Assembly (NCBI GenBank): GCA_963765835.1
Contig: CAVXYF010000020.1
Span: 20,731-84,730 of the forward strand
DNA length: 64,000 nt
Source: an uncultured Acidobacteriota bacterium
GTDB lineage: Bacteria; Acidobacteriota; Thermoanaerobaculia; UBA5066; Gp7-AA6
Direction: 5' to 3'
Shown: in pieces, positions 2,748 through 21,225 of the stretch
Position numbering within the stretch: position 1 is the first letter of the stretch
How the letters are laid out: each line of letters begins with the position of its first letter
Program-made: the position numbers and the translations under genes
The notes under the pieces: generated by a model
The model's database searches: none
Seen by the model: the letters and a program-made list of their open reading frames with translations, nothing else
Told to the model about the DNA's origin: nothing

Positions 2748-4082
2748 TTGAGCGGCGCGGACCTGGTCCTGACGAGCCGGAGGGTGGTGACGCCGTCCGG
2801 CACACGCGCGGCAGCGGTCGTCGTCGCGGGCGGCGTGATCGAGTCGGTCCGGGAATCGGCGCCGGCGGGCGCGCCCGTCGTGGACGTCGGCGACTCCGTC
2901 CTCATGCCGGGCCTCGTCGACACGCACGTGCACGTCAACGAGCCGGGGCGGACGGACTGGGAAGGCTTCGAGACCGCCACCCGGGCTGCGGCGGCCGGCG
3001 GCGTGACCACGATCTTCGACATGCCGCTCAACAGCGTTCCCGCGACGACGTCCTCGGAGGCGATGCGCGTCAAGCTGGCGGCGGCGGAGGGCAAGTGCTC
3101 GGTCGACGTCGGATTCTGGGGCGGGCTCGTCCCGGGCAACGCCGGAGAGCTCCGTCCCATGAAGGAGCTCGGAGCGCCCGGCTTCAAGTGCTTCCTCGTT
3201 CCGTCGGGCGTCGCGGAATTCGAGCACGTCGGGGATGGCGAGCTGGCGCACTCGCTGCGCGAGGTCGCGAGGATCGGCGCGGTGCTTCTCGTGCACGCGG
3301 AGGACCCGCGGTCGATTCGCACAACCTCGGGTGGGAGCCCACGGCAGTACGCGACCTATCTCGAGACGCGTCCACCGCGCGCCGAGGACGACGCCGTGGC
3401 GCTGCTCGTTCGGCTCTGCCGCGAGACGGGTGCCCGCATCCACGTCGTCCACCTCTCGTCGGCGGGTGCAATTGCGCAGATCGCCGGAGCCCGGGCGGAG
3501 GGGCTTCCGCTCTCGGCGGAGACGTGCCCGCACTACCTCTTCTTCGACGCGGAGGAGATCCCCGACGGCGCCACGGAGTTCAAGTGCGCTCCGCCGATCC
3601 GGGACCGCGCGAACCGCGAGCAGCTCTGGGCCGGGCTCGAGAGCGGCGCCGTCGAAATGGTGGTGTCGGACCACTCGCCCTCCCCGCCGGAGGGGAAGTG
3701 CCGCGACACCGGCGACTTTCTCGCCGCGTGGGGTGGCATATCGTCGCTTCAGCTGCGGCTGCCGGCCGTGTGGACGGCGGCGGGGCCGCGGGGTCACCCT
3801 TTCGACCGCCTCGGGGAGTGGCTGGCGGCGGCTCCGGCGCGGCTCGCCGGCCTGGGGGCGCGCAAGGGAGCCATCTCGCCCGGTTTCGACGCCGACTTCG
3901 TGGTCTGGAGACCGGAGCAGACGTTCGACGTCCGACCCGAATCGCTCCACCACCGTCACAAGCTCTCGCCCTACCTGGGACGGCCGCTCTCCGGCGTCGT
4001 GGAGTCGACGTACCTCGCGGGTGAGAAGATCTTCGAACGCGGCCGGTTCGTCGGGCCGCCGAGGGGAGAGTTACTCCTTTGA
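2748..4082 (+). CDS. allB: Allantoinase
   Basis: DTHVHVNEPGRTDWEGF, DMPLNSVP, GFKCF, ETCPHYL, FKCAPPIR and SDHSP; adjacent to allantoicase. Confidence 0.93.
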   Translation: MSGADLVLTSRRVVTPSGTRAAAVVVAGGVIESVRESAPAGAPVVDVGDSVLMPGLVDTHVHVNEPGRTDWEGFETATRAAAAGGVTTIFDMPLNSVPATTSSEAMRVKLAAAEGKCSVDVGFWGGLVPGNAGELRPMKELGAPGFKCFLVPSGVAEFEHVGDGELAHSLREVARIGAVLLVHAEDPRSIRTTSGGSPRQYATYLETRPPRAEDDAVALLVRLCRETGARIHVVHLSSAGAIAQIAGARAEGLPLSAETCPHYLFFDAEEIPDGATEFKCAPPIRDRANREQLWAGLESGAVEMVVSDHSPSPPEGKCRDTGDFLAAWGGISSLQLRLPAVWTAAGPRGHPFDRLGEWLAAAPARLAGLGARKGAISPGFDADFVVWRPEQTFDVRPESLHHRHKLSPYLGRPLSGVVESTYLAGEKIFERGRFVGPPRGELLL

Positions 4083-5065
4083 CGGATTTTACCGAACTGG
4101 TCGATCTTGCCTCCGAACGCCTGGGCGGAGCGGCAGTCTCCGCGAACGACGAGTTCTTCGCCCCCAAGGAGAACCTCGTCAAGACGGCGCCTCCGATCTT
4201 CCGGGAAGACGAGTACACCGACCGGGGCAAGTGGATGGACGGCTGGGAGACGCGGCGCCGGCGCGAGCCCGGCCACGACTGGTGCGTGGTGCGCCTCGGC
4301 CTGCCGGGCGTGATCCGCGGAATCTGCGTCGACACGGCCTTCTTCCGCGGCAACTTCCCGGAGGCCTGCTCGCTCGAGGCGGGTGATGGTCCGGACGGTC
4401 CCTGGGTCGAGGTCCTGCCGAAGTCGGCGCTGAAGGGCGATGCCGAAAACCTCTTCCCGGTCGAGAGCGGGCGCCGGACCACGCACGTGAAGCTCCACAT
4501 CTATCCGGATGGCGGCGTGGCCCGGCTGCGCGTCTACGGGCTCGTATCTCCGGAGAAGGCGTCCGTGCCGCACGCCGCGGAAATCGACCTCGCCGGGCTG
4601 GAGAACGGCGGACTCGTCGTCGCCGCGAGCGACATGTTCTTCGGCGCGAGGCACAACCTGATCCTGCCGGGCCCTCCGCTCGGCATGCACGACGGGTGGG
4701 AGACGCGGCGGCGCCGCGGGCCCGGGCACGACTGGGCTCTCCTGCGTCTGGGTCACCGCGGCGCGATCCGGCGGATCGAGGTCGACACCCGGTACTTCAA
4801 GGGGAACTCTCCGGGGAGCTGCTCGCTCGAAATCCTGGAGCAGGGTGACCCTCTCTCTCCGCAGGGGAAGTGGCGCGAAGTCCTGCCGCAGGTGCCGCTC
4901 CGGCCGGACTCCGTGCACCGGTTCGAGGCCGAGGTCCTGCCGTCGCCGGCCGCCACGCACGCGCGTTTCCACATCTACCCGGACGGGGGCGTCGCGAGGC
5001 TCCGGCTCATCGGGGAAGTCGCGGGGACAGGTCCCTTCGGGGGCCTGCACCCGCCACCGGATTAA
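4079..5065 (+). CDS. alc: Allantoicase
   Basis: Two repeats of the motif set DGWETRRRR / GHDW / VDT..F.GN / IYPDGGVARLR. The last ~15 aa are encoded by a palindromic repeat copy. Confidence 0.95.
   Translation: MTDFTELVDLASERLGGAAVSANDEFFAPKENLVKTAPPIFREDEYTDRGKWMDGWETRRRREPGHDWCVVRLGLPGVIRGICVDTAFFRGNFPEACSLEAGDGPDGPWVEVLPKSALKGDAENLFPVESGRRTTHVKLHIYPDGGVARLRVYGLVSPEKASVPHAAEIDLAGLENGGLVVAASDMFFGARHNLILPGPPLGMHDGWETRRRRGPGHDWALLRLGHRGAIRRIEVDTRYFKGNSPGSCSLEILEQGDPLSPQGKWREVLPQVPLRPDSVHRFEAEVLPSPAATHARFHIYPDGGVARLRLIGEVAGTGPFGGLHPPPD
5017..5058 (+). repeat. Dispersed palindromic repeat copy forming the 3' end of alc
   Basis: AGTCGCGGGGACAGGTCCCTTCGGGGGCCTGCACCCGCCACC; its flanks match those at 5299, 12452, 54383 and 55473. 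Confidence 0.88.
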
Positions 5066-5082
5066 ACGGTCGAGGCGTCGCC

Positions 5083-5712
5083 CTGACGGTCGCCCTCGAG
5101 GAGTTGAACGCGCTTCCCCCGACGGAGGCGCAGCGGCGATTCCTCTCCTGCTGTGGTTCGTCGGAGTGGGCGCGGCGTATGACGGAGGCGCGTCCCTTTG
5201 GAAGTGTCGAGTCGCTCGCCGAGACGGCCGACCGGACCTGGCGCGGGCTGTCGAGGCAGGACTGGCTGGAGGCGTTCCAGGCGCATCCCCCCATAGGAGT
5301 CGCGGGGACAGGTTTTAACCTGCACCCGCCGCCGAACTCAGCGGGGACAGGTTTTAACCTGCACCCGCCGCCGAACTCAGCGGGGACAGGTTTTAACCTG
5401 CACCCGCCTCCGAACTCAGCGAACTCGAACCTTGATCGGTCCGTTCACTGGGCCCGGCAGGAACAGTCCGGCACGGCGGGCGCGGACGCGGAGACGCGGG
5501 CGGGGCTCGCGCTCTTGAACCGCGAGTACGCCGAGCGGTTCGGCCACGTCTTCCTCGTCTGCGCGACCGGGAGGAGCGCGCCGGAGATGCTTGCTCTGGG
5601 GCGGCAGAGGCTCCGGAACGACCCGGCGACGGAGCTCGCGACCGCCGCGGAAGAGCAGCGTAAGATCACTCGGCTTCGGCTGGAGAAACTTCTTTCGCCG
5701 ATCGAGCGATGA
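5083..5712 (+). CDS. uraD: OHCU decarboxylase (start uncertain: CTG 5083 or TTG 5104), with an in-frame 3 x 13-aa insertion
   Basis: LNALP...FLSCCGSSEWARRM..ARPF, AFQAHPPIG, RQEQSG, Y.ERFGHVFLVCATG, EEQRKITRLRL; lies between alc and uraH. Confidence 0.9.
   Translation: MTVALEELNALPPTEAQRRFLSCCGSSEWARRMTEARPFGSVESLAETADRTWRGLSRQDWLEAFQAHPPIGVAGTGFNLHPPPNSAGTGFNLHPPPNSAGTGFNLHPPPNSANSNLDRSVHWARQEQSGTAGADAETRAGLALLNREYAERFGHVFLVCATGRSAPEMLALGRQRLRNDPATELATAAEEQRKITRLRLEKLLSPIER
5299..5418 (+). repeat. 39-bp tandem array x3 of the dispersed repeat inside uraD (encodes AGTGFNLHPPPNS x3)
   Basis: Units 5302-5340, 5341-5379 and 5380-5418 read GCGGGGACAGGTTTTAACCTGCACCCGCCGCCGAACTCA, with one mismatch in the third unit. 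Confidence 0.95.
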
Positions 5713-6044
5713 GCGCCATCACCACCCACGTCCTCGACACGTCGCGCGGGCAACCGGCCGCGGGCGTCTCGGTCACCCTCGAGTTCCTGGCCGAAGACGG
5801 GTGGAAGTGGCTCGGGGGCGGCCGGACTGACGACGACGGGCGAGTCCGGGACCTCTTCGGAGGCGATGTCCTGTTCGGGAAGTATCGCCTGACCTTCGAC
5901 ACGGGCACTTACTTCGAGTCATCCGGTACGGAAGGTTTTTTTCCGCTGGTGCAGCTCGTTTTCACGGTCCACGATCCCGAGCGGGACTATCACGTGCCCC
6001 TGCTCCTGTCGCCCTACGGCTACTCGACCTATCGCGGTTCGTGA
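5709..6044 (+). CDS. uraH: 5-hydroxyisourate hydrolase (transthyretin-like)
   Basis: N-terminal ITTHVLDTSRG and C-terminal YHVPLLLSPYGYSTYRGS. Confidence 0.96.
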   Translation: MSAITTHVLDTSRGQPAAGVSVTLEFLAEDGWKWLGGGRTDDDGRVRDLFGGDVLFGKYRLTFDTGTYFESSGTEGFFPLVQLVFTVHDPERDYHVPLLLSPYGYSTYRGS

Positions 6045-6859
6045 TGCTGGGTCGGAACAGCTACGGAAAGTCGGGAATCCGGCTCGTTCGGGTGGACCGC
6101 GCTTCCCCGGACCACGCCGTGTCCGACCTCACGGTTGCGGTCCGGCTGGAGGGCGACTTCGAGGCGGTGCACGTCGCCGGCGACAACTCCGGTCTCGTCG
6201 CGACCGACACGATGAAGAACACGGTCTACGCGCATGCGAAGGAGCTCTCCGGCCGCGAGATCGAGGACTTCGCGCTGTCGCTCTCGGACCACTTCCTCCG
6301 GGAGAACCCGTCGCTGTCGGGGTCCGAGGTGTCGATCGAGGAGCGGATCTGGGATCGCTTGAGCAGCTCCTCGTTCGAAGGGTCGCGCGAGGAACGCCGA
6401 ACCGCGCGCGCCGTCCGGTCCCGCGAAACCGCCATCCTGTGGTCGGGGCTCCGGGACCTCCTCATCCTGAAGACCGCGCACTCCGGGTTTTCGGGGTTCG
6501 CGCGGGACCGCTACACGACGCTGCCGGAGACCCGCGACCGCCTGCTGGCGACCTCGCTCACGGCGGAGTGGACGCACGCTTCCGCGGCCGGACCTTTCGT
6601 CGGGCGATGGAAGGCGGTCCGCAGCACGCTGCTCGACACCTTCGCCGGCCACGACAGCGCGTCGGTCCAGCACACGCTGTATGCGATGGGGGAGGCGGCG
6701 CTCGCGGCGCACCCCGGCATCCGGGAGATCCGTCTCACGATGCCGAACCGCCACCACCTGCTCGTGGACCTGTCCCCCTTCGGTCTGAAAAACGAGAACG
6801 AAATCTTCGTGGCCACCGCGGAGCCCTACGGACTCATCGAGGCGACGGTGACGCGGTAG
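6041..6859 (+). CDS. pucL: Cofactor-independent urate oxidase (uricase)
   Basis: NSYGKSGIRL, ATDTMKNTVY, LKTAHSGFSGF.RD.YTTLPET.DR, SVQHTLY, MPNRHH, EPYGLIEATV. Confidence 0.94.
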   Translation: MMLGRNSYGKSGIRLVRVDRASPDHAVSDLTVAVRLEGDFEAVHVAGDNSGLVATDTMKNTVYAHAKELSGREIEDFALSLSDHFLRENPSLSGSEVSIEERIWDRLSSSSFEGSREERRTARAVRSRETAILWSGLRDLLILKTAHSGFSGFARDRYTTLPETRDRLLATSLTAEWTHASAAGPFVGRWKAVRSTLLDTFAGHDSASVQHTLYAMGEAALAAHPGIREIRLTMPNRHHLLVDLSPFGLKNENEIFVATAEPYGLIEATVTR

Positions 6860-6885
6860 ATCGATACACCGGAAAGGAGACACCC

Positions 6886-7188
6886 ATGGTCAAGTATCAG
6901 ACGTCGTGCGCCAAGGGACAGCAGGGAGAGATTCTCGTCAACGGCCTGTACGTCAGCGGTACGGAACCCGCGTGGATCGAGCGCGTCATCCTCGAGGAGC
7001 TGGACGCTGCGGGAAACGCCATCGGGTCCTGGACGTTCCACGTCGACCGATATGTGGATCCCGTCGTGCAGAGCTCGCAGATGCTCGTTTCCAAGATGCC
7101 GTCCGGTAGCAACGTGAAGGGCGCGCGGGCCACCGCGTACTGGATCGAGATCGACAAGGTGTCGAAGTCCGCGATCTTGAACCTCTAG
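6886..7188 (+). CDS. Hypothetical 100-aa protein
   Basis: Strong SD (AAAGGAG) upstream of ATG 6886, 26 bp after the uricase stop. No family recognised. Confidence 0.65.
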   Translation: MVKYQTSCAKGQQGEILVNGLYVSGTEPAWIERVILEELDAAGNAIGSWTFHVDRYVDPVVQSSQMLVSKMPSGSNVKGARATAYWIEIDKVSKSAILNL

Positions 7189-7191
7189 ATC

Positions 7192-7213
7192 CCGCTCGTT
7201 CTTCTCCGAGCGG
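7192..7213. terminator. Hairpin between convergent operons
   Basis: CCGCTCG-N8-CGAGCGG; no clear U-tract on either side. Confidence 0.4.
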
Positions 7214-7227
7214 CGCACCAAAAGTTC

Positions 7228-8574
7228 TTAGAGCTTCCGGCTCTTCAGGATTCTCACGAACGAGCGTCCTCGCAGCTCGTCTGAGGCGAGCCCGCTCATC
7301 TCGACGGCTTCCTCCTCCGTGATTGCCCCGCAGCCCCAGGCGCGGAGGAAGTGGTTCAACAGGCCCTGCCCGGTCGCCGCGTCGTCGAAGACTTCACCGA
7401 CGAGAGTCGCCTGGCCCGCCTTCTGGACAAAGTTCTTCAGCCTCGCCGACGCTGCATCGATCCCCTCCAGGAAGAACGCGTAGAGCGCGGCGTACCGTGT
7501 CGGGAGCTGCGCGGGGTGCAGGTCCCACCCCTGGTAGAAGCCGTGCGCGAGCGAGTGCCGGACGTGGTCGTAGTGGAGCTTCCATGCCGCGTGGACCGCC
7601 CGGCGGTTCGCCTCGGCCTCCGCAGCGCCGAGCGGGCGTCCCTCCGAAGCGCGGTGCGGCGGCACCGGTAACACGTTCGTCGAGCCGTCCGAGATCCAGA
7701 CGCCGGTGCCGGCGAGCGCGACCTGGAGAACGCTCTTGGCGAAGTCGCACGCGGGATGAGTCATCGTCTGGTACGCCGCGGTGATGTTCAGGGACGCCGT
7801 GTAGTCGTACGTGCCGAAGTGCGCGGCGACGCAGCGGCGCCGCGACGCGCCCACCAGGCGCTGGATCGACGCCGTCCCCTCATCGTCGAGGATCGCCTGC
7901 GGCGTCTCGACCATGATCTCGAACGGAAGGGCGCGTTCGGGCAGGCGGAGGTGGCGCTCGAGCTGGTCGAGCAGCTGCGCCAGCGCGGAGACCTGTTCCG
8001 CCACCGTGACCTTTGGAAGGGTGACGACGAAGTTGTCCGGCAGGCGGCCGCCGGTTTCCCGGGTCAGCGCGGTCAGGAAGAGGTCGAGCGTGCGCACCGC
8101 GCGCGCCTTCAGCTCTTCGGTGAAAGGCTTGATGCGGATCCCGAGGTAGGGCGGCAGCGTTTCGGCCGCGAGACCTCTCGCCACCTCCACCGCGGCGGAC
8201 TCCGCGTGGCCGTCCTCTTCCGCGTCGGGGCGGTTGCCGTAACCGTCCTCGAAGTCGATGCGGAAGTCCTCGACCGGCTCGCGGGAGAGCTTCCGCGCGA
8301 CACGGTCGTAAATCGTCTCGGCGAGCATCCCGGGCAGGTCGAGCGCCCGGGCGAAGTCCCCCGGCTCCGGGGCGTACTCCTCGAGGGAGCGCCGCGCGAA
8401 GGCGCCCAGCCGCGGCGCGGTGTCGGAGCGGAACACCTGGGCGCCGCCGTACACGGTGTGCACGGGCTGCCGCCGATCGGAGTCGCCCGGGAAGCGCTTC
8501 GCGAAGTCGCGGTTCGCCTCCGCGATCTGCGCCAATACCATCTGAAATTCTTCGGGCGCGAGGGTCTGCTTCAC
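7228..8574 (-). CDS. HpcH/CitE aldolase-citrate lyase superfamily protein (DUF6986-like)
   Basis: GTG start overlaps the upstream stop. Motifs VHTVYGGA, RIDFEDGYG, TLPKV, EIMVETPQ, HFGTYDY, SDGSTN, QGWDLHPAQL. Confidence 0.8.
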   Translation of the reverse strand: MKQTLAPEEFQMVLAQIAEANRDFAKRFPGDSDRRQPVHTVYGGAQVFRSDTAPRLGAFARRSLEEYAPEPGDFARALDLPGMLAETIYDRVARKLSREPVEDFRIDFEDGYGNRPDAEEDGHAESAAVEVARGLAAETLPPYLGIRIKPFTEELKARAVRTLDLFLTALTRETGGRLPDNFVVTLPKVTVAEQVSALAQLLDQLERHLRLPERALPFEIMVETPQAILDDEGTASIQRLVGASRRRCVAAHFGTYDYTASLNITAAYQTMTHPACDFAKSVLQVALAGTGVWISDGSTNVLPVPPHRASEGRPLGAAEAEANRRAVHAAWKLHYDHVRHSLAHGFYQGWDLHPAQLPTRYAALYAFFLEGIDAASARLKNFVQKAGQATLVGEVFDDAATGQGLLNHFLRAWGCGAITEEEAVEMSGLASDELRGRSFVRILKSRKL

Positions 8575-9395
8575 GGAGCCGTTTCCCTCCAGAACTGCTC
8601 GAGGAGATTTCCGGAGACGCGCCGGCGATACTCCGCCGTCGAGCGCAGGTCGTCGATCGGATTGATCTCGGCGTCCAGCGCGCGGCGGGCGTCGGCGATG
8701 CCGGCGCCGGAGGCGAGCACGGCCTCCGTCTCCGGCAGGCGCACGACCGTGGGCGCCACGCTTCCGAGCGACACGCGGGGGCGGTCGGACCGGACTGCCG
8801 CCATGACCACCTTGGAAATCGCCTGAGCCGCCCGCGTCCCGACCTTGCGGAACCACTGGCGCCCCTCGACCCGCGGGATCTCGACCGCCGTGATGAGCTC
8901 GTCGGGGCGGAGGACGCTCTGGCGATAGCCCGTGTAGAAGGAGTTGAAGGAAACGCGCCGGTCGCCGCCCGCGCTCGCGAGGATCAGGTTCGCCTCGGCG
9001 ACCGCGAGGACAGGCAGGCTGTCTCCGGCGGGGGAGCCGTTGGCGACGTTGCCGCCGAGCGTGCCGCGGTTCTGGATCTGGACTCCGCCGATCTCTCCCG
9101 CGGCCGCGGCGAGAATGGGCAGCCGGCGCCGCACGAGGGCCGAACGCATGATTTCCGTGTAGGTGGCCAGCGCGCCGATCGAGAGGGCGCCTTCCGAGAT
9201 GCCGATCCGGCGCAGCTCGGCGAGCGGCCAGAGGTCCAGGAACCTTTTGGCCGGCAGTGTCCCGAAGTTCAGTCCAACGTAGACGTCGGTGCAGCCGGCC
9301 AGCGGAACGAGGGGACCCTCGTCGCGCAACATCTCGAGCGCCTCTCGCACGGTGCGGGGCTGCAGGAGCTCGAGCCGCGAGACGGCGGTCCTCAT
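8571..9395 (-). CDS. Xanthine dehydrogenase family FAD-binding subunit
   Basis: LAGCTDV, LSIGALATY, IGGVQIQNRGTLGGNVANGSPAGD, RAAQAISKV, PIDDLRSTAEYRR. Confidence 0.9.
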   Translation of the reverse strand: MRTAVSRLELLQPRTVREALEMLRDEGPLVPLAGCTDVYVGLNFGTLPAKRFLDLWPLAELRRIGISEGALSIGALATYTEIMRSALVRRRLPILAAAAGEIGGVQIQNRGTLGGNVANGSPAGDSLPVLAVAEANLILASAGGDRRVSFNSFYTGYRQSVLRPDELITAVEIPRVEGRQWFRKVGTRAAQAISKVVMAAVRSDRPRVSLGSVAPTVVRLPETEAVLASGAGIADARRALDAEINPIDDLRSTAEYRRRVSGNLLEQFWRETAP

Positions 9396-9880
9396 GAAGA
9401 CGCCTCCGCGCGAACTCGGGGGATCCAGCGGGGGACGGCGTTGCGGTACTCCTCGTACTCGTCGCCGAACGCGCCGGCGAGGTGGGGTTCCTCGTAGAGG
9501 ATCACGAAGAGGTGAAAGACGAGCCACGCCACGGCGGCGAAGATCCCGATCGATCTCGACTCGAAGAAGAGCGCCTCTCCGACGAGCGTGGTCACGACCC
9601 CGACGTACATCGGGTTCCTCACGTAGCGGTAGAGGCCGACCGAGACCAGCTTTCGGGGAGGATCGACCGGAGCGAGCGTCCCGCGCCCCTTGCGGGCAAA
9701 GTCCACGATGCACGCGAGCAGCACGGCGGCCCCGGCCGCCATCAAGGGAACCCCGGCCCATCGCCAGGTTCCCAGGTGGGCGCTTCCGGCATCCCGGGCC
9801 GCGAGCATCCGGGGAATCCACACCACGGCCGTCCCCGGCATAAGAACCGTGAAAAACAGGGCCCGCAGGAAGAGGATCAT
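9392..9880 (-). CDS. Isoprenylcysteine carboxyl methyltransferase / PEMT-family membrane protein
   Basis: Hydrophobic helices with GRGTLAPVDPP.KLV..GLYRYVRNPMYVG and YEEPHL...FG.EYEEY...VPRWIP. Confidence 0.85.
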   Translation of the reverse strand: MILFLRALFFTVLMPGTAVVWIPRMLAARDAGSAHLGTWRWAGVPLMAAGAAVLLACIVDFARKGRGTLAPVDPPRKLVSVGLYRYVRNPMYVGVVTTLVGEALFFESRSIGIFAAVAWLVFHLFVILYEEPHLAGAFGDEYEEYRNAVPRWIPRVRAEASS

Positions 9881-10329
9881 CGCTTTTCGCGGCGCCCGCG
9901 ACGGGTCGCCGCCTGGTCCACCGCCCGGTAGATCGCGGTGTACCCGGTGCACCGGCAGATGTTCCCGGCGAGACCCCGCCGGACGTCGTCGAGGGTCGCA
10001 CCTCGCGGCAACGCCGCAGCCGCAAGAATCATCCCCGGCGTACAGATACCGCACTGCGCTCCGCCTTCGACGACGAAGGCCTCCTGCAGCGGGTGACGGC
10101 CGCCGAGTCCCTCGATCGTGGTCACGGTGCAGCCGCGCACCTGCGCGAACGGGACGAGGCACGAGTTGACCGGCATTCCGTCGACGAGGACCGTGCAGGC
10201 GCCGCACTCTCCCTCGCCGCACCCCTCCTTGGTCCCGGTCAGGCCGCACTCCTCGCGCAGGACGTCCAGCAGCCGCTTCATCGGGGCGGCCTTCACGTCG
10301 CGCGCCTTTCCGTTGAGCGCGAACCTCAC
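9877..10329 (-). CDS. Xanthine dehydrogenase family 2x[2Fe-2S] subunit
   Basis: GTKEGCGEGECGACTV, NSC, QCGICTPG and NICRCTGY; GTG start overlaps the upstream stop. Confidence 0.92.
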   Translation of the reverse strand: MRFALNGKARDVKAAPMKRLLDVLREECGLTGTKEGCGEGECGACTVLVDGMPVNSCLVPFAQVRGCTVTTIEGLGGRHPLQEAFVVEGGAQCGICTPGMILAAAALPRGATLDDVRRGLAGNICRCTGYTAIYRAVDQAATRRGRREKR

Positions 10330-12437: not shown

Positions 12438-12451
12438 GGCTCCGGGAGGTC

Positions 12452-12493
12452 GGCGGCGGGTGCAGGCCCCCAAAGGGACCTGTCCCCGCGACT
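12452..12493 (-). repeat. Dispersed palindromic repeat copy between preA and the Mo subunit
   Basis: Reverse complement reads AGTCGCGGGGACAGGTCCCTTTGGGGGCCTGCACCCGCCGCC, near-identical to 5017-5058. Confidence 0.88.
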
Positions 12494-12539
12494 TTCGAGA
12501 GGCGCCCACGGTTGGGCGCGGATGCTACCGCACCGGGCG

Positions 12540-13684: not shown

Positions 13685-15022
13685 CTAGCTCGCTCCCGCA
13701 GCTTCGAAAGATTCGTGAAGAATCGACAGCGCTTCCGAGATTTCAGAAGCGTTGACCGTCAGAGCCGGCGCGATGCGGAATGCGTTCCCCTCGAGGCCGC
13801 CCTTGCCGATCAGGAGACCGCGCCTTCGAGCCTCTTCGAAGATCTTGTTGGTCAGCTCCTTCGCGGGCGTGCGGTCGCGAGCCGTCTCGTCGACCACGAG
13901 CTCCACCGCCTGCATGAGCCCCATGCCCCGGACGTCCCCCAGGTTCTTTGGAAACCTCCGCTTCAGCTCCTCGAGGCCGGCGCGCAGCAGATCGCCCATC
14001 GTCTGAGCATTGGCGGGCAGGCCCTCTTCCTCGATGAACTGGACGGTCGCGTTCCCCGCCGCGCACGAGATCGGGTTTCCGCCGAAGGTCGAGATCGTGA
14101 GCGACTTCAGCGACGCCGCGATCTCGGGCGTGCAGACCGTGACGCCGAGCGGGAGACCGTTCGCCACGCCCTTGGCCATCGTCATGATCTCGGGCTCGAC
14201 TCCCCAGTGCTCGATGCCCCACATCTTCGTCCCGGTGCGGCCGAAGCCGGTCTGGACCTCGTCGCAGATGAAGACTCCGCCGTACTTGCGCACGATCGCG
14301 ACCGCGGCCTCGAAGTACTCGGGCGGCGGCGTGATGAAACCCCCGACTCCCTGGATGGGCTCGGCGATGAACGCCGAGATACGGCCGGTGGTGGTCGTGC
14401 GGATGATGTCCTCGATGTCGGTCGCGCAGGCGATCCCGCACGAGGGGTACGTCAGGTGCATCGGGCAGCGGTAGCAGTACGGCGTCGGTGCGTGCTTGAT
14501 GCCGGCGATCTTGGTCGAGAGCGGCCGCCACGTGGAGTGGGCGGTCAACGATTGCGCGAGCGTCGAACGGCCCGAGTATCCGTGGCGGAGCGCGATGACT
14601 TCCGACCGCCCCGTGAAGAGCTCCGCCATCATCACGGCGGTTTCGTCCGCCTCCGTGCCCGAGGCCGTGAAGTACATCTGGCGCAACTTGCCCGGCGCGA
14701 TCCGCGCCAGCCGCTCCGCGAGCTCGACTACCGGAAGCGTGGGATAGAGCGTCGAGATGTGGGAGAGCCGGTCGACCTGCGCCTTGATCGCGGCGTTGAC
14801 CTTCTCGTTCCCATGCCCGACCGACACCGTCAGGATCCCGCCGAAGAAGTCGAGGTACTCGTTTCCGTCCGCGTCGCGCACCCGGAGCCCCTTCGCGTCC
14901 GTGACGACGATCGGCTCCTGGTAATACTGGATCGTGGCCGGGAAGAGGTACTCCTTGTGCTTCTCCCGGACGCTCTTCGTGAGGTCGGACGTGGGGCGGG
15001 TTTCGCGGCTGACAGTGCTCAT
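13685..15022 (-). CDS. Class III aminotransferase (AGXT2/PYD4-like; probable beta-alanine aminotransferase)
   Basis: YLDFFGGI.TVSVGH, SGTEADE, YSG, EPIQGVGG, DEVQTGFGRTG, MAKGVANG, STFGGNP; pathway context. Confidence 0.85.
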   Translation of the reverse strand: MSTVSRETRPTSDLTKSVREKHKEYLFPATIQYYQEPIVVTDAKGLRVRDADGNEYLDFFGGILTVSVGHGNEKVNAAIKAQVDRLSHISTLYPTLPVVELAERLARIAPGKLRQMYFTASGTEADETAVMMAELFTGRSEVIALRHGYSGRSTLAQSLTAHSTWRPLSTKIAGIKHAPTPYCYRCPMHLTYPSCGIACATDIEDIIRTTTTGRISAFIAEPIQGVGGFITPPPEYFEAAVAIVRKYGGVFICDEVQTGFGRTGTKMWGIEHWGVEPEIMTMAKGVANGLPLGVTVCTPEIAASLKSLTISTFGGNPISCAAGNATVQFIEEEGLPANAQTMGDLLRAGLEELKRRFPKNLGDVRGMGLMQAVELVVDETARDRTPAKELTNKIFEEARRRGLLIGKGGLEGNAFRIAPALTVNASEISEALSILHESFEAAGAS

Positions 15023-16431
15023 GACCTGGGACTCCTCTTCAGGAATGAGCCGGCGCCGGCTCTTCCGGTGAACTTTCCGTTCTCGACGACCACTTTGCCG
15101 CGGGAGAGGACCGTGTCGGACACTCCCGTGACCTCCCGCCCCTCGTAAGGGTTGTAGTCCACCTTCATGTGGAGCGTCTTCGCCGACAGCGTCTGTTTCC
15201 GGTTGGGGTCGAAGACGACGAGGTCCGCGTCGGAGCCCGGTGCGATCGTGCCCTTTCGGGGGAAGAGGCCGAAGATCTTCGCGGGCGACGTGGACGTCAG
15301 CTCCACGAACCGGTTCCACGAGATCTTTCCGGTCCGGACGCCTCCGTCGTGGACGAGGCTCATCCGCGTCTCGATCCCCGGCGCGCCGTTGGGGATCTTC
15401 GAGAAGTCGTCGCGGCCCAGCTCCTTCTGCTCCTTCATGCAGAACGGGCAGTGGTCCGTCGAGATGGCCTGCAGGTCGTTGGACGCGAGGCCCCGCCAGA
15501 GGCGGTCCTGCGTCTCCTTCGGCCGAAGCGGCGGGCTCATGACGTACTTCGCGCCCTCGAAGCCGGGCTCCTCGTAGTTGTCGTAGGAGAGGAAGAGGTA
15601 CTGCGGGCAGGTCTCGGCGTAGGCGGGAAGGCCGCGATCGCGCGCCTCCGTCACCATCTCGAGGGCCTCCGCCGCGGAGAGGTGGACGATGTAGATCGGA
15701 ACGCCGGCGATCTCGGCGAGAGCGATCGCCCGGTGCGTCGCCTCGGCTTCGGCGCGCGCCGGCCGGGTGAGGGCGTGGTACTTCGGAGCCGTATTCCCCT
15801 CGGCGAGCGCGCGCTGTACCAGCACGTCGATGACGCCGCCGTTCTCGGCGTGCATGCAGATCGTGCCGCCGTTCTCCCGGGTTCGCAGGAGAGCGCGGAA
15901 GATCGACGCGTCGTCCAGCATGAAGACGCCGGGGTAGGCCATGAAGAGCTTGAAAGACGTCACGCCCTCGCGGACGAGCTCGTCCATCTCGCGTTCGACC
16001 GAGTCGTTCAGGTCCGTGACGATCATGTGGAAGCCGTAGTCGATCGCGGCCTTGCCGTCGGCCTTGGCCCTCCAGGCGTCGAGCGCGTGCCGGAGCGTCT
16101 GGCCGCGGTACTGGATCGCGAAGTCGACGACCGACGTCGTGCCGCCGTGGGCCGCGGCGATCGTGCCGGACTCGAAGTCGTCCGCGGACGTCGTGCCGCC
16201 GAAGGGCATGTCGAGGTGCGTGTGGACGTCGATGCCCCCCGGGATCACGAACTTGCCGGCGGCGTCGATCGTCCGGTCGAGGGTCTGATCCGCGTGGGTC
16301 TGATCCCCGAAGGGGGTCAGATCCACATTTGGTGCCATCACCGCCGAAATCTTCTCGTCCTCGATGAGGACGTCGCCCCGGTACAAGTCGGTCGCGGTGA
16401 CGACGGTGCCGCCGCGGATCAGGGTCTTCAA
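15019..16431 (-). CDS. hydA: Dihydropyrimidinase
   Basis: GGIDVHTHLDMPFGGT, SFKLFMAY, MHAENG, ETCPQYL, YVMSPPLR, STDHCPF, IPNG.PG.ETR; TTG start overlaps the upstream stop. Confidence 0.94.
   Translation of the reverse strand: MKTLIRGGTVVTATDLYRGDVLIEDEKISAVMAPNVDLTPFGDQTHADQTLDRTIDAAGKFVIPGGIDVHTHLDMPFGGTTSADDFESGTIAAAHGGTTSVVDFAIQYRGQTLRHALDAWRAKADGKAAIDYGFHMIVTDLNDSVEREMDELVREGVTSFKLFMAYPGVFMLDDASIFRALLRTRENGGTICMHAENGGVIDVLVQRALAEGNTAPKYHALTRPARAEAEATHRAIALAEIAGVPIYIVHLSAAEALEMVTEARDRGLPAYAETCPQYLFLSYDNYEEPGFEGAKYVMSPPLRPKETQDRLWRGLASNDLQAISTDHCPFCMKEQKELGRDDFSKIPNGAPGIETRMSLVHDGGVRTGKISWNRFVELTSTSPAKIFGLFPRKGTIAPGSDADLVVFDPNRKQTLSAKTLHMKVDYNPYEGREVTGVSDTVLSRGKVVVENGKFTGRAGAGSFLKRSPRS
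16281..16325 (-). repeat. Palindromic repeat variant inserted in frame near the hydA N-terminus
   Basis: Minus strand reads GATCTGACCCCCTTCGGGGATCAGACCCACGCGGATCAGACCC (DLTPFGDQTHADQT), sharing the core of the 62327 array. Confidence 0.75.
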
Positions 16432-17300
16432 GTGGCGATCTCGGCCATCGGCTGGTAGGTCTCGGGACGGCGGTCGCGGAAGAACTGCCAGACCCGCCGG
16501 ACCTCCTCGATCATGTCGAGGTCCATCTCCGCCGTGATGAGCTCGTCCTTCTCCTCGGAGGCGACGGCGAGGAAGTTGCCGCGCGGGTCCACGAAGTAGG
16601 ACGAACCGTAAAAGCGCCCCAGGTTCCACGGCGACTCAACGCCCACGCGATTGCTGCACGCCATGAAGTAGCCGTTGGCCACGGCGTGCGCCGGCTGCTC
16701 CAGCTTCCACAGGTACTGCGAGAGCCCCGCGACCGTAGCCGAAGGGTTGAAGACGATCTCCGCGCCGTTCAAACCGAGAAGGCGGGCGCCCTCCGGGAAG
16801 TGGCGGTCGTAGCAGATGTACACGCCGACCTTCGCGTAGCGCGTCTCGAAGACGGGGTAGCCGAGGTTACCCGGCTTGAAGAAGTACTTCTCCCAGAAGC
16901 CGGACGTATGGGGAATGTGGTTCTTGCGGTACTTCCCGAGATAGGAGCCGTCGGCGTCGTAGACCGCGGCGGTGTTGTAGTACACGCCGGCCTGCTCGCG
17001 CTCGTAGACCGGGACGACCATCGCCATCTGGTACTTCTTCGCGTACTGCGCCATCCGCTCGGTCGTGGGCCCGGGCACCGGTTCCGCCATGTCGTACCAG
17101 TGCGGATCCTGGGACGGGCAGAAGTAGGGACCGTTGAAGATCTCCTGCAGGCCGAGAATCTGGACGCCGTTCCGGCCGGCTTCTTCGATCATGTGGATGT
17201 GCCGGGAGATCGCGTCCTCCCGCACCTGCTCGATCGGGACGGACGGGTCCGAGAGCGGCGTCGCGCACTGGATCAGGCCGCCGGTGACTTTACGGGGCAT
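16428..17300 (-). CDS. Beta-ureidopropionase (nitrilase/C-N hydrolase family)
   Basis: Catalytic triad motifs LQEIFNGPYFC, YRKNHIP and ICYDRHFPEG; lies between mmsA and hydA. Confidence 0.9.
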   Translation of the reverse strand: MPRKVTGGLIQCATPLSDPSVPIEQVREDAISRHIHMIEEAGRNGVQILGLQEIFNGPYFCPSQDPHWYDMAEPVPGPTTERMAQYAKKYQMAMVVPVYEREQAGVYYNTAAVYDADGSYLGKYRKNHIPHTSGFWEKYFFKPGNLGYPVFETRYAKVGVYICYDRHFPEGARLLGLNGAEIVFNPSATVAGLSQYLWKLEQPAHAVANGYFMACSNRVGVESPWNLGRFYGSSYFVDPRGNFLAVASEEKDELITAEMDLDMIEEVRRVWQFFRDRRPETYQPMAEIAT

Positions 17301-17321
17301 CTAAGAGCCTCCAGGTCGGTC

Positions 17322-17394
17322 GGAACACGGGACACGGGACACGGGACACGACCCGGGTGCTCTTCGTGTTCCGTGTTCCCTGTCCCGTGTCCCG
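17322..17394. repeat. Inverted array of GGGACAC/GGAACAC heptamers forming an intercistronic stem-loop
   Basis: GGAACACGGGACACGGGACACGGGACACG, a spacer, then CGTGTTCCGTGTTCCCTGTCCCGTGTCCCG. Confidence 0.85.
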
Positions 17395-17396
17395 GC

Positions 17397-18905
17397 TCAG
17401 AACCATCGGGAAATGACTACCTTCTTATCGGTATAGAACTCATAAGCATCGCGTCCGTGCACCTTCAGGTCGCCGAAGAAGCTGTCCTTGGCGCCGCCGA
17501 ACGGAAAGTACGCCATCGGAGCGGCGACGCCGATGTTCACGCCCACCATCGATGCCGACGCCATCCGCGCGAACTCGCGCGCGGCCTTGCCGCTCGTGGT
17601 GAAGATGGACGTCGCGTTCGCGTTGGGATGCGCGTGCATGACCTCGATCGCCTCCTCCAGGCTCTTGACCGGGGAGATCGACGCCACGGGGCCGAAGATC
17701 TCCTCGTGGCCGATCGTCATCGAGGGAGAAACCTCGTCGAAGAGCGTGGGGCCGAGAAAGAACCCTTTCTCGCTGCCCTCGACCGAGAGCTCGCGACCGT
17801 CCACGACGAGGCGGGCCCCCTCCTGCACGCCCCTGTCGATGTAGGAGAGCACGCGCTCCCGGTGCCGCCCGCTGATGACCGGCCCCATCTCGACGTCCTC
17901 CGCCATTCCGTCGCCGACCCGGAGGGCCTTCGTGGACGCGGCCATGCGGTCCCGCGCCTCGCCGTGCGCCTCTCCAACCGGAACGAGGATGCTTCCGGCG
18001 AGACAGCGCTCGCCGGCGCAGCCGTAGAACGACTCCGTGATGACGTCGATCGAGCGATCCCAGTCAGCGTCCGGCATGACGACGATGAAGTTCTTGGCTC
18101 CGCCGAGCGCCTGCACGCGTTTTCCGGCGTGGGTCGCGCGCCGCCAGACCGCCTTCGCGACCGGCGTCGAGCCGACGAAGGAGACCGCACGGATCTCAGG
18201 GTGGTCGCAGATCGCCTCGACCACCTCGCGGCCGCCGTTGACCAGGTTCACCACGCCCGGCGGGAGGCCGCACTTCTCCAGCAGGCGGAAGATCAGCCGC
18301 TGGGAGAGCGGAACCTGCTCGGACGGCTTGACGATGATGGTGTTCCCGGTGCCGACCGCGAACGGCAAAAACCAGAGAGGAACCATGGCCGGGAAGTTGA
18401 ACGGCGCGATCGCGGCACAGACGCCCACGGGTTGACGGATCACCTGGCAGTCGATGCCGGAGGAGATGTTCTCGAGGCCGTAACCCATCATGAGCGACGG
18501 GGAGCCGCACGCCACCTCGACGCACTCGATTCCGCGGCGCACGCTGCCCCGGGATTCGCCGATGGTTTTTCCGTGCTCGGTCGTGACCGTGCGCGCGAGC
18601 TCCTCGAAGTTTTCCTCGAGGAGCTGCCGGAACGAAAACAAAGCTCGGGCCCGCACGACCGCGGGCGTGTCGCGCCACGCCGGAAACGCCTTCTTCGCGG
18701 CGAGAACCGCAGCGTCCAGGTCTTCACCGGTCGAGAGCGGCGTCTTCGCGATGATCTCGCCGCGAGCGGGGTTGTACACGTCGAGGAACTCGCGGGCGCG
18801 AGAGTCGACCCACCGGCCCCCGATGAAGTTCTGGAGGACTTCGGCGTCTCTCGAGGAGCCGGCCCTGGCGCTCGTCGCGTCCGTTGCGACCGCCGAATCC
18901 GTCAT
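17397..18905 (-). CDS. mmsA: CoA-acylating (methyl)malonate-semialdehyde dehydrogenase
   Basis: PFNFPAMVPLW, KPSEQVP, SFVGST, QALGGAKNF, GCAGERCLA, EEIFGPV, FPFGGAKDSFFGD. Confidence 0.93.
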   Translation of the reverse strand: MTDSAVATDATSARAGSSRDAEVLQNFIGGRWVDSRAREFLDVYNPARGEIIAKTPLSTGEDLDAAVLAAKKAFPAWRDTPAVVRARALFSFRQLLEENFEELARTVTTEHGKTIGESRGSVRRGIECVEVACGSPSLMMGYGLENISSGIDCQVIRQPVGVCAAIAPFNFPAMVPLWFLPFAVGTGNTIIVKPSEQVPLSQRLIFRLLEKCGLPPGVVNLVNGGREVVEAICDHPEIRAVSFVGSTPVAKAVWRRATHAGKRVQALGGAKNFIVVMPDADWDRSIDVITESFYGCAGERCLAGSILVPVGEAHGEARDRMAASTKALRVGDGMAEDVEMGPVISGRHRERVLSYIDRGVQEGARLVVDGRELSVEGSEKGFFLGPTLFDEVSPSMTIGHEEIFGPVASISPVKSLEEAIEVMHAHPNANATSIFTTSGKAAREFARMASASMVGVNIGVAAPMAYFPFGGAKDSFFGDLKVHGRDAYEFYTDKKVVISRWF

Positions 18906-19023
18906 GCGGACCTCCGTACCTCGGTTGAGGAAAGGCGCAATAGTATTCCCGGCACTTGAGCCCCGCAAGCTTCTCACCCGGTGGAGTTTGCGACGGCGCG
19001 ACGCCGCCGGCGCGCCCGAAAAA

Positions 19024-19045
19024 CTGGCAGGCAATGTGCTAATCT
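19024..19045 (+). promoter_or_regulatory. Candidate promoter for the RRM gene
   Basis: CTGGCAGGCAATGTGCTAATCT has GG-N10-GC (sigma54-like spacing) overlapping an extended -10 (TGnTAATCT). Confidence 0.3.
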
Positions 19046-19192
19046 GTACCTCGTTCTCGTTCCGCTCGCTTTGCCAGACCTGCTCTGACGAATTCCGAAC
19101 GATAAGAAAACGGGAAGGCGCGACGCGCGCGGCGGCGGTCGCGTCCGGGCAACGCCGGGGTTGCTGCTGGCCCGCCGGCAGGAGGAATTCGG

Positions 19193-19495
19193 ATGAAACT
19201 GTACGTCGGCAATCTTTCCTACTCCACGACAGAGGACGACCTCCGTCAGCTCTTCGGGGCCTATGGCACTCCCGAATCGGTTTCGGTCATCTCCGACCGG
19301 GGCACGGGACGCTCGAAGGGCTTCGGCTTCGTCGAGTTCTCGAAGGACGAGGAAGCCAAAGCGGCCATGTCCGCGCTGAACGGCAAGGAAATCGACGGAC
19401 GGGCGCTGACCGTTTCGGAAGCCCGTCCGCGGACGGAGCCGAGCGGAAATCGGGGCGGAGGCGGTGGTGGCGGCGGCCGGGGCGGCCGCTACTGA
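19193..19495 (+). CDS. RRM RNA-binding protein with Gly-rich tail
   Basis: RNP2 LYVGNL, RNP1 KGFGFVEF, a GGGGGRGGRY tail, and SD AGGAGG. Confidence 0.95.
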   Translation: MKLYVGNLSYSTTEDDLRQLFGAYGTPESVSVISDRGTGRSKGFGFVEFSKDEEAKAAMSALNGKEIDGRALTVSEARPRTEPSGNRGGGGGGGGRGGRY

Positions 19496-19593
19496 TCCTC
19501 GGCGGAATGCGAAAATCGTCGTCGGGATCGCGGACGGGGCGTTGAAGCACCTCGCAAAAGCGATCTCACTTTCTGAAGGGACCTGACGCGCTC

Positions 19594-20727
19594 ATGGAAA
19601 AACACCAAAAAAAGGACTGGACGAACATCCTTTTCCTGTCGCTGACCCCGATCGTCGGGATCTTCGGCACCGCTGCCTATGCCTTGAAGTTCGGCGTCCA
19701 GTGGTGGCAGCCGGTCCTGTTTCTCCTCTCGTACCTGCTGGTCGGCCTGTCCGTCACGGCGGGCTACCACCGCCTCTTCGCGCACAAGGGTTACGAGAGC
19801 CACCCTCTCGTTCAGGCCTTCTTCCTCTTCTTCGGTGCGATGGCGCTGCAGAATTCGGTTCTCAAGTGGGCGTCGGACCACCGGACGCACCACAAGTACG
19901 TCGACAAGGACTGGGATCCGTACTCGATCAAGCGGGGCGGGCTCTCCGCCCACATCTTCTGGCTCTTCTACAAGGACCCGGACGGCCACAAGTTCGACAA
20001 CGTGCCGGACCTCCAGGCCAACCGGCTCGTGATGTGGCAGTACCGCTACGCGTCCTGGATCGGAATCCTCTTCGGGCTGGGCATCCCCACTTTGATTGGC
20101 GCCGCTTTCGGCAGCCCGATGGCGGGACTTCTCTGGGGCGGGTTCCTCCGGATCGTCGTCATCCACCACACGACCTTCTTCGTCAATTCCATCGCGCACA
20201 TGTACGGCTCGCGCCCGTACACGGACGAGAACTCGGCGCGGGACAACTGGCTGCTCGCCTTCGTGACGAATGGCGAGGGTTTCCACAATTTCCACCACCG
20301 TTTCCCGACCGACTACCGCAACGGCATCCGCTGGTTCGACTGGGACCCCACGAAGTGGTTGATCCGGACGTTCGCGGCGCTCGGCCTGGCGCGCGATCTC
20401 CGAGCGACCCCCCGCCCCATCATCGAGAAGGCGCGCCTGAAGATGGCGGCGCTCGAGGTGCAGTCACGCCTTCCGGGCGTGCCGGCCGAGGTCGGTGAGA
20501 TGGTTCGTGCCCGGCTGGACCGCGCGGCACAGTTCCTGGAGCGCGCAACGTCGCACTGGAACCGCGCGCAGGAAAAGAAGCGGGCCTGGATGGAAAAGAG
20601 GGCATCGTCGGCCTACGCCCGGAGCTGGAAGAAGAACCTCCGCGCGCAGAAGGGCTGTCTCGCCCGCGCGCGGCAGGAGTGGCAGGGCGCGCTCGCGCTC
20701 CTCTCCCGGAATCCCGAAGCCGCCTGA
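19594..20727 (+). CDS. Delta-9-type acyl-CoA/acyl-lipid desaturase
   Basis: His boxes YHRLFAH, HRTHH and FHNFHH, plus DWDPTKWLI. Confidence 0.92.
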   Translation: MEKHQKKDWTNILFLSLTPIVGIFGTAAYALKFGVQWWQPVLFLLSYLLVGLSVTAGYHRLFAHKGYESHPLVQAFFLFFGAMALQNSVLKWASDHRTHHKYVDKDWDPYSIKRGGLSAHIFWLFYKDPDGHKFDNVPDLQANRLVMWQYRYASWIGILFGLGIPTLIGAAFGSPMAGLLWGGFLRIVVIHHTTFFVNSIAHMYGSRPYTDENSARDNWLLAFVTNGEGFHNFHHRFPTDYRNGIRWFDWDPTKWLIRTFAALGLARDLRATPRPIIEKARLKMAALEVQSRLPGVPAEVGEMVRARLDRAAQFLERATSHWNRAQEKKRAWMEKRASSAYARSWKKNLRAQKGCLARARQEWQGALALLSRNPEAA

Positions 20728-20735
20728 AAACCGGG

Positions 20736-20762
20736 AGGCGGTAGGCGGTAGGCGGTAGGCGG
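20736..20762 (+). repeat. Intergenic heptamer tandem repeat (AGGCGGT) x ~4
   Basis: AGGCGGTAGGCGGTAGGCGGTAGGCGG. Confidence 0.9.
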
Positions 20763-20784
20763 AAGGACGGGAGAGCCCGGCTCG

Positions 20785-21225
20785 ATGGACGACCGCGCGC
20801 TGCTCGAGGTCGCGATCCAGGAGGCCCGGCGGGGACTCTCGGAGGGAGGGATCCCGATCGGCGCCGCGCTCTTCGACGTCGAGGGCAACCTCCTCGGGCG
20901 CGGGCACAACCGGCGCATCCAGGAGAACGACCCCTCGGTCCACGGCGAAACCGACGCGTTCCGGAAGGCGGGCCGCCAGCGCGGTTACCGGGACAAAACG
21001 ATGGTGTCAACGCTCGCGCCGTGCTGGTACTGCAGCGGCCTCGTCCGGCAGTTCGGCATCGGCCGCGTGATCGTGGGGGAGTCGATCAACTTCGCCGGCG
21101 GTCTCGACTGGCTCCGGGACAACGGCGTGCAGGTCGTCGACCTCGCCTCGCTCGAGTGCATCGAGATGCTGGGGGAGTGGATCGCCGCACATCCGGATGT
21201 CTGGAATGAGGACATCGGCCGGTAG
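20785..21225 (+). CDS. Cytosine/nucleoside deaminase (yeast Fcy1-like, CDA fold)
   Basis: EGGIPIGAAL, GHNRRIQ, HGETDAFRKAG, TLAPCWYCSG, WNEDIG. Confidence 0.9.
   Translation: MDDRALLEVAIQEARRGLSEGGIPIGAALFDVEGNLLGRGHNRRIQENDPSVHGETDAFRKAGRQRGYRDKTMVSTLAPCWYCSGLVRQFGIGRVIVGESINFAGGLDWLRDNGVQVVDLASLECIEMLGEWIAAHPDVWNEDIGR

Follow-up and report, generated by a model that had tools for sequence, protein, structure and literature searches.

Purine breakdown and pyrimidine breakdown are two textbook routes, as a rule encoded at separate loci and investigated separately. Reductive pyrimidine catabolism is represented by PreTA of Escherichia coli, the pyd genes of Pseudomonas and the eukaryotic PYD genes, and oxidative purine breakdown by the puc genes of Bacillus subtilis, xdh/alc/allA of Pseudomonas and the DAL genes of Saccharomyces cerevisiae. 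Here we describe a stretch of DNA from an uncultured Acidobacteriota bacterium (assembly GCA_963765835.1, contig CAVXYF010000020.1, positions 20,731–84,730), hereafter the window (64,000 nt, ~68% G+C), in which genes for both routes stand together in two convergent operons. The first follows the same five chemical steps, with the same enzyme families, as the known pyrimidine routes and then runs on into xanthine dehydrogenase (Xdh) and a protein of family DUF6986. The second supplies the remainder of the route from Xdh through uricase, 5-hydroxyisourate hydrolase, 2-oxo-4-hydroxy-4-carboxy-5-ureidoimidazoline (OHCU) decarboxylase and allantoinase to allantoicase, which is shared with the three uricolytic systems named above. 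We read the locus as a lineage-conserved nucleobase catabolism island, built of known pathways in an unusual arrangement, and give this reading a probability of about 0.62.

Genes were picked from third-position G+C frame plots and start-codon context. A preliminary description of this DNA had named xdh, uox, uraH, uraD, allB, alc, preA, hydA, bup, an aminotransferase gene and mmsA, and all of these lie where it had placed them; overlooked there were the genes for DUF6986, for a PEMT/ICMT-like membrane protein and for a small protein, orf100. The minus-strand operon has 10 genes, in the order mmsA, bup, hydA, aminotransferase, PreA-like, Xdh molybdopterin (Mo) subunit, Xdh iron–sulfur (FeS) subunit, membrane protein, Xdh FAD subunit and DUF6986. 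From mmsA to DUF6986 all genes lie on one strand, their junctions are short or overlapping (seven 4-nt overlaps, 30 nt separating Xdh Mo from the PreA-like gene and 96 nt separating bup from mmsA) and no internal terminator is evident; a scan of the cluster for internal promoters and terminators gave results at chance level. The xdh genes are embedded in the pyrimidine operon, as had been proposed, within a translationally coupled run that continues through to DUF6986. From the gene overlaps alone, we infer that the genes from mmsA to DUF6986 are co-transcribed and co-regulated.

This arrangement is not peculiar to one contig. We surveyed 61 relatives with DUF6986 as the anchor gene, compared synteny in 20 longer loci taken from the DUF6986-bearing relatives, and collected 80 DUF6986/ureide loci from many phyla. 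The same architecture, a uricolytic operon converging on DUF6986-xdh-(preA)-aminotransferase-hydA-bup-mmsA, recurs in at least seven genera (g1, g2, g4, g6, g7, g8 and g12) of one Thermoanaerobaculia family, so that the gene-neighbourhood survey suggested in the preliminary description gives the synteny a lineage-wide footing. The two pathways do usually occupy separate loci, as was stated there, with just 4 of the 80 cross-phylum loci holding two or more pyrimidine genes. Other Acidobacteriota have joined the pathways independently: in one locus hydA and bup adjoin DUF6986, the ureide genes and xdh (L075), in another the short PreA lies within a uricase operon (L103), and in a third the order is bup-allB-alc-uraD-uraH-uox (L056). 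That the pathways are mixed repeatedly, and in different orders, speaks for a functional link rather than a chance adjacency. The bup orthologue, present in about 37 of the 61 relatives, some of them lacking allantoicase, is found in all allantoicase-positive genomes of adequate completeness. Across phyla it is a purine module of xdh, DUF6986 and ureide genes that is widespread, and in this Thermoanaerobaculia family the pyrimidine genes are joined to xdh.

Several observations nevertheless weigh against an integrated island and speak for a plainer view, namely that separate catabolic modules came to lie side by side by drift in a compact genome, each with its own regulation and use, and that their adjacency carries no functional meaning. 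Because the uricolytic operon is convergent, it would be a separate transcript, sharing at best a common regulator with the pyrimidine operon, and no shared operator or regulator was found for the two. The pyrimidine operon stands alone in genus g13, where its loci lack both xdh and a short PreA, and the purine module stands alone in most other phyla. Unrelated insertions (an MFS transporter, a sigma/anti-sigma pair, a sensor) split the cluster in some relatives. Even the minus-strand transcript could be split by an 83-nt intercistronic hairpin between mmsA and bup (17319–17401, minus strand; GGGACAC heptamer repeats, dG -60.6 kcal/mol, z -4.6). On the other hand, mere drift does not readily account for the translational coupling of xdh and DUF6986 to the pyrimidine genes, for an arrangement kept over the seven or more genera at synonymous divergences (dS) of 0.5–0.9 between them, for at least three other mixed gene orders in other Acidobacteriota, or for the bup orthologue in every adequately complete allantoicase-positive genome. 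We consider it unlikely that these genes are no more than neighbours. Of the co-regulated nucleic-acid scavenging module first proposed, the conserved cluster with Xdh in the pyrimidine operon stands, and its co-regulation and scavenging purpose are putative.

The mmsA–bup hairpin has no U-tract behind it and may be a processing or stability element. It was also the one place in the cluster to draw attention in an Rfam scan (riboswitches included), which found no family: the hairpin was below threshold and resembled a microRNA model by shape. A 12-mer shared upstream of allB and mmsA was rejected as chance, being the sole such match and a GC palindrome within coding sequence.

The pyrimidine part of the minus-strand operon begins with mmsA (17397–18905), for a CoA-acylating (methyl)malonate-semialdehyde dehydrogenase (TIGR01722, 556.6 bits against a cut-off of 448.5). 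It is followed by bup (16428–17300; PF00795), a beta-ureidopropionase of the nitrilase/CN-hydrolase, eukaryote-like type whose best PDB match is the Drosophila beta-alanine synthase 2vhh (E 2e-58), with human beta-ureidopropionase next, and by hydA (15019–16431), a dihydropyrimidinase (TIGR02033, 634.7 bits against a cut-off of 393). The class-III (omega) aminotransferase (13685–15022; PF00202, E 5e-95), presumed to be the beta-alanine transaminase, has omega- and GABA-transaminases and AGXT2-like enzymes as its PDB neighbours. At 1.9 kb past the operon is the gene for a yeast-type, FCY1-like cytosine deaminase (20785–21225, plus strand; aligned over its whole length with 1uaq, E 3e-30), in line with the ~2 kb reported earlier. 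Since in some genera this deaminase gene and the PreA-like gene form a divergent pair beside mmsA, the deaminase is best counted as part of the module. In the window's genus it is parted from the operon by two genes, one for a small glycine-rich protein with RNA recognition motif-like sequences (19193–19495, plus strand; KGFGFVEF, recognized by eye) and one for a fatty-acid desaturase (19594–20727).

The plus-strand operon is tight, in the order allB-alc-uraD-uraH-uox-orf100, and its five named enzymes all score above the NCBIfam equivalog cut-offs: allantoinase (allB, 2748–4082; TIGR03178, 563.9 bits against 357.85), two-repeat allantoicase (alc, 4079–5065; PF03561, E 4e-96; TIGR02961, 399.5 against 277.9), OHCU decarboxylase (uraD, about 5104–5712; TIGR03180, 167 against 139), 5-hydroxyisourate hydrolase (uraH, 5709–6044; TIGR02962, 136.7 against 87) and cofactor-independent urate oxidase (uox, 6041–6859; TIGR03383, 308 against 168). 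The last gene, orf100 (6886–7188), has a third-position G+C frame signal and a good ribosome-binding site and encodes an orphan protein of 100 aa; a Pfam search gave no match, and its homologues (50–62% identity) are confined to the window's genus. Within uraD an in-frame tandem repeat of 3 x 13 aa (GTGFNLHPPPNSA; window positions 5299–5418) divides the Pfam match in two, and the allantoicase C-terminus bears a GLHPPP string resembling this repeat.

The three subunits of Xdh are encoded on the minus strand at 10326–12509 (Mo; PF02738, PF20256, PF01315), 9877–10329 ([2Fe-2S]; PF01799, PF00111) and 8571–9395 (FAD-binding; PF00941, PF03450). The start of the FAD subunit gene overlaps by 4 nt the PEMT/ICMT-like membrane-protein gene (9392–9880, minus strand; PF04191, E 2e-15) that separates it from the FeS gene; this inserted gene is translationally coupled to its Xdh neighbours and occurs only in some species of the genus and in none of the other genera. 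The Mo subunit has mammalian and Rhodobacter xanthine dehydrogenases as its best PDB matches and is the sole XDH-family enzyme in the genome, which is 92% complete. Alignment with rat XDH pairs Q210 with Gln767, E245 with Glu802, R323 with Arg880, R355 with Arg912, F357 with Phe914, F446 with Phe1009, T447 with Thr1010 and E686 with Glu1261. Glu802 and Arg880 set purine hydroxylases apart from aldehyde oxidases. We therefore predict a purine-type, three-subunit xanthine dehydrogenase, and the concern raised in the preliminary description, that the molybdenum enzyme might not act on purines, finds no encouragement in an active site that keeps all the purine-type residues.

Counting against this assignment, the best curated match of the Mo subunit (pucD) reaches only 485.8 bits against a cut-off of 783.65, and the FeS and FAD subunits likewise fall below their NCBIfam equivalog cut-offs; with scores under all curated XDH cut-offs, this Xdh is a divergent member. 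One might thus suppose that the enzymes are mis-assigned, either with a Mo enzyme that hydroxylates some non-purine substrate, or with 'pyrimidine' enzymes whose true substrates are hydantoins, N-carbamoyl compounds or an intermediate derived from purines, so that the cluster would encode one pathway for a different substrate. Besides the low Xdh score, it would suit this view that bup fits N-carbamoylputrescine amidase nearly as closely as it does beta-ureidopropionase, that dihydropyrimidinases double as D-hydantoinases, and that homologous 'reaction modules' are common to the purine and pyrimidine routes (PMC4016543). Such a pathway would, however, have to be squared with the retention of every XDH substrate-binding residue and of the uracil-binding and catalytic residues of the PreA-like protein described below, with a yeast-type cytosine deaminase that travels with preA, with an MmsA and an aminotransferase that fit the beta-alanine route, and with an adjacent operon that needs urate. 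We regard mis-assignment on this scale as very improbable.

The PreA-like protein (12540–13682, minus strand) corresponds to the flavin mononucleotide (FMN) domain of dihydropyrimidine dehydrogenase (DPD). It aligns with residues 531–838 of pig DPD and keeps the counterparts of uracil-binding Asn609 (N87), Asn668 (N150) and Asn736 (N217) and of catalytic Cys671 (C153). The 'preA' of the earlier gene list is borne out as far as this FMN/pyrimidine domain goes; the iron–sulfur domain implied by the name is missing, and the genome has no PreT to go with it. These are further points against a complete island. The score for NF006183 (302.8 bits) is under the cut-off of 335, with only profile positions 1–330 of 422 matched. 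The C-terminal 2x[4Fe-4S] domain is absent and no Cys occurs in the tail; each of the 120 closest homologues is of similar build (366–393 aa, PF01180 only). The PreT/GltD-type Fer4_20 profile (PF14691) is unmatched in the 92%-complete genome. With neither Fe–S clusters nor PreT, the first pyrimidine step is left with no known electron source.

Two genomes of genus g7, G020 and G032, show what becomes of these genes when uricolysis is lost. Neither has allantoicase, and of DUF6986 there remain at most fragments at its original place; mmsA-bup-hydA-aminotransferase-xdhMo-FeS-FAD is intact, followed by an NCS1 nucleobase permease gene. Between the two genomes xdh has a ratio of non-synonymous to synonymous divergence (dN/dS) of 0.12–0.16 at dS 0.5–0.7. 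In G032, DUF6986 pseudogene fragments (locus L130, 14456–14518 and nearby) directly follow the intact xdhFAD, and the uricolytic genes are absent from the genome. DUF6986 thus depends on the ureide pathway, and Xdh, kept in its absence, is tied to the pyrimidine genes. The retention of Xdh is compatible with a simple harvest of reducing power.

The same observations allow a bolder interpretation, in which Xdh is the electron-input module of the Fe–S-less PreA-like protein. Oxidation of hypoxanthine or xanthine would then drive uracil reduction, either through the Xdh FeS/FAD subunits directly or through a private carrier, and the two pathways would be redox-coupled. This is suggested by a PreA-like protein that is an FMN domain alone in a genome with neither Fer4_20 nor PreT, by an xdh that begins only 30 nt after preA, by the intact and constrained xdh of G020 and G032 within the pyrimidine operon despite the loss of uricolysis, by the g13 loci, in which xdh and the short PreA are missing together, and by the short PreA inside the L103 uricase operon. 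If the idea were true, the net reaction would be xanthine + uracil -> urate + dihydrouracil, with Xdh replacing PreT, and it would explain at once the retention of xdh without uricolysis, the PreT-less family and the short PreA in uricase operons. Yet no Xdh–PreA complex is known, and several genera have preA ~10 kb from xdh, paired divergently with the cytosine deaminase gene. Moreover, a gain in reducing power or NADH could by itself explain why Xdh is kept, a ping-pong mechanism could let a single-domain flavoprotein work with NAD(P)H, and G020 and G032 may have lost uricolysis only recently. On balance we think redox coupling quite unlikely, and we retain the reading of a conserved island of otherwise known pathways.

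The gene at the far end of the minus-strand operon, DUF6986 (7228–8574; PF22484, E 8e-188), deserves particular attention. A literature search for 'DUF6986' found no paper, and we recovered about 700 clusters of the family (50% identity, E <= 1e-30). Its AlphaFold 2 model (predicted local distance difference test score, pLDDT, 95) has a malate-synthase/CitE fold; the top Foldseek matches of the model in the PDB are CitE-like lyases, malyl-CoA lyases, malate synthases A, G and H, and CLYBL, all of which bind glyoxylate or pyruvate plus acyl-CoA, and a profile search returns the same families. Aligned by hhalign with malate synthase A (AceB) of E. coli (88% probability, 114 columns), E223 and D257 fall on the Mg ligands E250 and D278. 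Further motifs, invariant in the DUF6986 family, are collinear: DFED with DFED, R147 with R166, LPK with LPK, W350-x-x-HP with W365-x-x-HP, and DDAAT (D398) with EDAAT, the site of the catalytic D447, the placement of R147 and D398 being by motif order and inspection, not by structural superposition. To judge from sequence and model, DUF6986 would have the TIM-barrel, the Mg-binding Glu/Asp pair, the catalytic Arg and the lid Asp of a malate synthase. The malate synthase profile itself (PF01274) has no match at E <= 0.001 in the genome, DUF6986 included; some DUF6986 homologues bear a weak precomputed PF01274 match. The NCBI label 'phosphoenolpyruvate kinase' on some homologues was set aside, as no enzymological backing for it turned up in the literature consulted and it is probably an echo of a superfamily label.

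Its distribution ties DUF6986 to allantoicase. Among the 61 relatives, 27 have both genes, 33 have neither, one (a fragmented assembly) has allantoicase only and none has DUF6986 only (Fisher p 2e-16, uncorrected for phylogeny). In about 30 of 40 long loci from many phyla, the neighbours of DUF6986 are uraH, alc and allB; uraD also lies nearby, with uricase or the membrane urate oxidase PuuD. None of the 61 relatives has AllA, the classical ureidoglycolate lyase. DUF6986 lies outside the AllA cupin family (PF04115) and has a different fold, and would therefore be an analogue of AllA and not a member of its family. Experiments on a malate-synthase-like protein of vertebrates established it as a ureidoglycolate lyase (PMC10120013). 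The fold of DUF6986, its co-occurrence with allantoicase, the absence of AllA and this vertebrate precedent together favour a role of DUF6986 as ureidoglycolate lyase, a prediction drawn in part by analogy to which we give about even odds; that it is instead a glyoxylate/acyl-CoA condensing enzyme is a tentative second possibility.

Two features leave more than one reaction plausible for DUF6986. It coexists with a canonical malate synthase in several relatives, and it keeps the catalytic Asp and Arg of malate synthases, which a pure lyase might not need. The thought that DUF6986 and canonical malate synthase are complementary in distribution was rejected, because both coexist in several genera and PF01274 is missing only from the window's genus; the canonical enzyme comes and goes without regard to DUF6986. 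For the step that was thought missing, be it ureidoglycolate cleavage or some other handling of glyoxylate, DUF6986 is the best candidate. The preliminary description had recognized no ureidoglycolate lyase in the cluster; this is right for the AllA type, and the step itself is probably encoded by the gene it passed over.

In the scheme that we propose, the FCY1-like deaminase would convert cytosine to uracil, which the PreA-like flavoprotein would reduce. Dihydropyrimidinase would open the ring and the nitrilase-type beta-ureidopropionase would decarbamoylate the product to beta-alanine; after transamination, MmsA would oxidize the malonate semialdehyde to acetyl-CoA. The same transcription unit would run on into the purine-type, three-subunit Xdh and DUF6986, and the convergent operon would carry urate on, by way of 5-hydroxyisourate, OHCU, allantoin and allantoate, as far as ureidoglycolate and urea. 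Most likely, a Mg-dependent DUF6986 would then cleave ureidoglycolate to glyoxylate and urea; condensation of glyoxylate and an acyl-CoA could be a second activity of the enzyme, or its only one. The branches would meet at glyoxylate, which may serve as the amino acceptor for beta-alanine and so yield glycine, a role proposed because the relatives of the aminotransferase include AGXT2-like enzymes. Alternatively, they might meet in the condensation of glyoxylate with acetyl-CoA.

Allantoicase releases urea. Urease (alpha subunit) was found neither in the genome nor in any of the 61 relatives from its order, 28 of which encode allantoicase. Urea carboxylase/urea amidolyase was considered and rejected, as a single CT_A_B match lies beside a LamB/YcsF-type gene and belongs to a 5-oxoprolinase-like set. 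With neither enzyme, the purine branch may bring the cell little nitrogen, a further point against the proposed reading: the purine ring nitrogen would leave as urea, and the label 'scavenging' needs care. If the absence of urease holds, the purine branch would yield electrons and glyoxylate, and the pyrimidine branch ammonia, an amino group and acetyl-CoA.

The absences noted earlier hold within the window, for a transporter and a regulator as for an AllA-type lyase, a urease and XdhC; an XdhC/CoxI maturation gene is encoded elsewhere, on contig C12, unlinked to the cluster. No conserved transporter or regulator was found among the relatives, whose insertions vary (an MFS–MarR fusion, a diguanylate cyclase sensor, a sigma/anti-sigma pair). 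The NCS1 permease gene occurs at the cluster in genus g7 only. In some species of the window's genus the gene for the MFS–MarR fusion, a transporter with a MarR-like domain at its C-terminus, lies between orf100 and DUF6986 (genome G010, locus L024, 3944–6007; also G001 and G011).

A few further observations concern the flanks of the cluster and the quality of some related assemblies. Divergent from allB and ~75 nt from it is a gene for a group II pyridoxal phosphate-dependent decarboxylase (1520–2672, minus strand), whose PF00282 match spans profile positions 26–338 of 375. A suf operon for Fe–S assembly (27850–33697, minus strand; SufB, SufD, a SufC-like ABC ATPase, SufS and a SufT-like protein) is unrelated to the cluster. 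Genome G021 was considered as an example of both halves of the cluster decaying together and rejected, since almost every gene is multiply frameshifted in an assembly of four contigs and long-read indel error is likely. In this genome (locus L033) and in G028, nearly all the cluster genes are split by frameshifts or TGA stops in assemblies of four to five contigs, probably for the same reason.

Regardless of the exact chemistry at its end, one conserved unit that joins both routes offers a concrete system in which to ask whether, and how, bacteria balance purine against pyrimidine breakdown. Within it, DUF6986 would be the best candidate for a bacterial replacement of AllA at the end of purine breakdown, and a purine pathway with no urease raises the prospect that its pay-off is carbon (as glyoxylate) and electrons, and not nitrogen. 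The hosts are abundant, uncultured soil Acidobacteriota, and the arrangement thus bears on the recycling of nucleic-acid debris in soil.

Set against the described pyrimidine systems, the locus departs from PreT/PreA and DPD in a PreA-like protein that lacks the C-terminal 4Fe-4S domain and in a genome without PreT; its bup is of the nitrilase type known from animals and plants, and its operon continues into xdh and DUF6986. Compared with known uricolytic clusters, it has no AllA/DAL3-type lyase and no urease, its XdhC is unlinked, and its Xdh is a three-subunit enzyme, encoded in the order L-S-M, that shares one operon with pyrimidine genes. There is precedent for a malate-synthase-type gene linked to allantoin genes in yeast DAL7. 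A further parallel is the zebrafish protein DrMSL, which has the malate-synthase fold, co-evolves with allantoicase and carries out the last step of purine breakdown (PMC10120013). Like DrMSL, DUF6986 is without the Arg of the GRWDY motif. It differs in forming a separate and shorter family (about 450 aa) that is nearer to CitE and malyl-CoA lyase and, so far as sequence and model tell, in keeping equivalents of W365, of the Mg ligands and of the catalytic Asp. Finally, although its sequence similarity to malate synthases is marginal and PF01274 is not matched, DUF6986 has its fold and the order of its catalytic motifs in common with malate synthases A, G and H and with the malyl-CoA lyases and CitE-like lyases.

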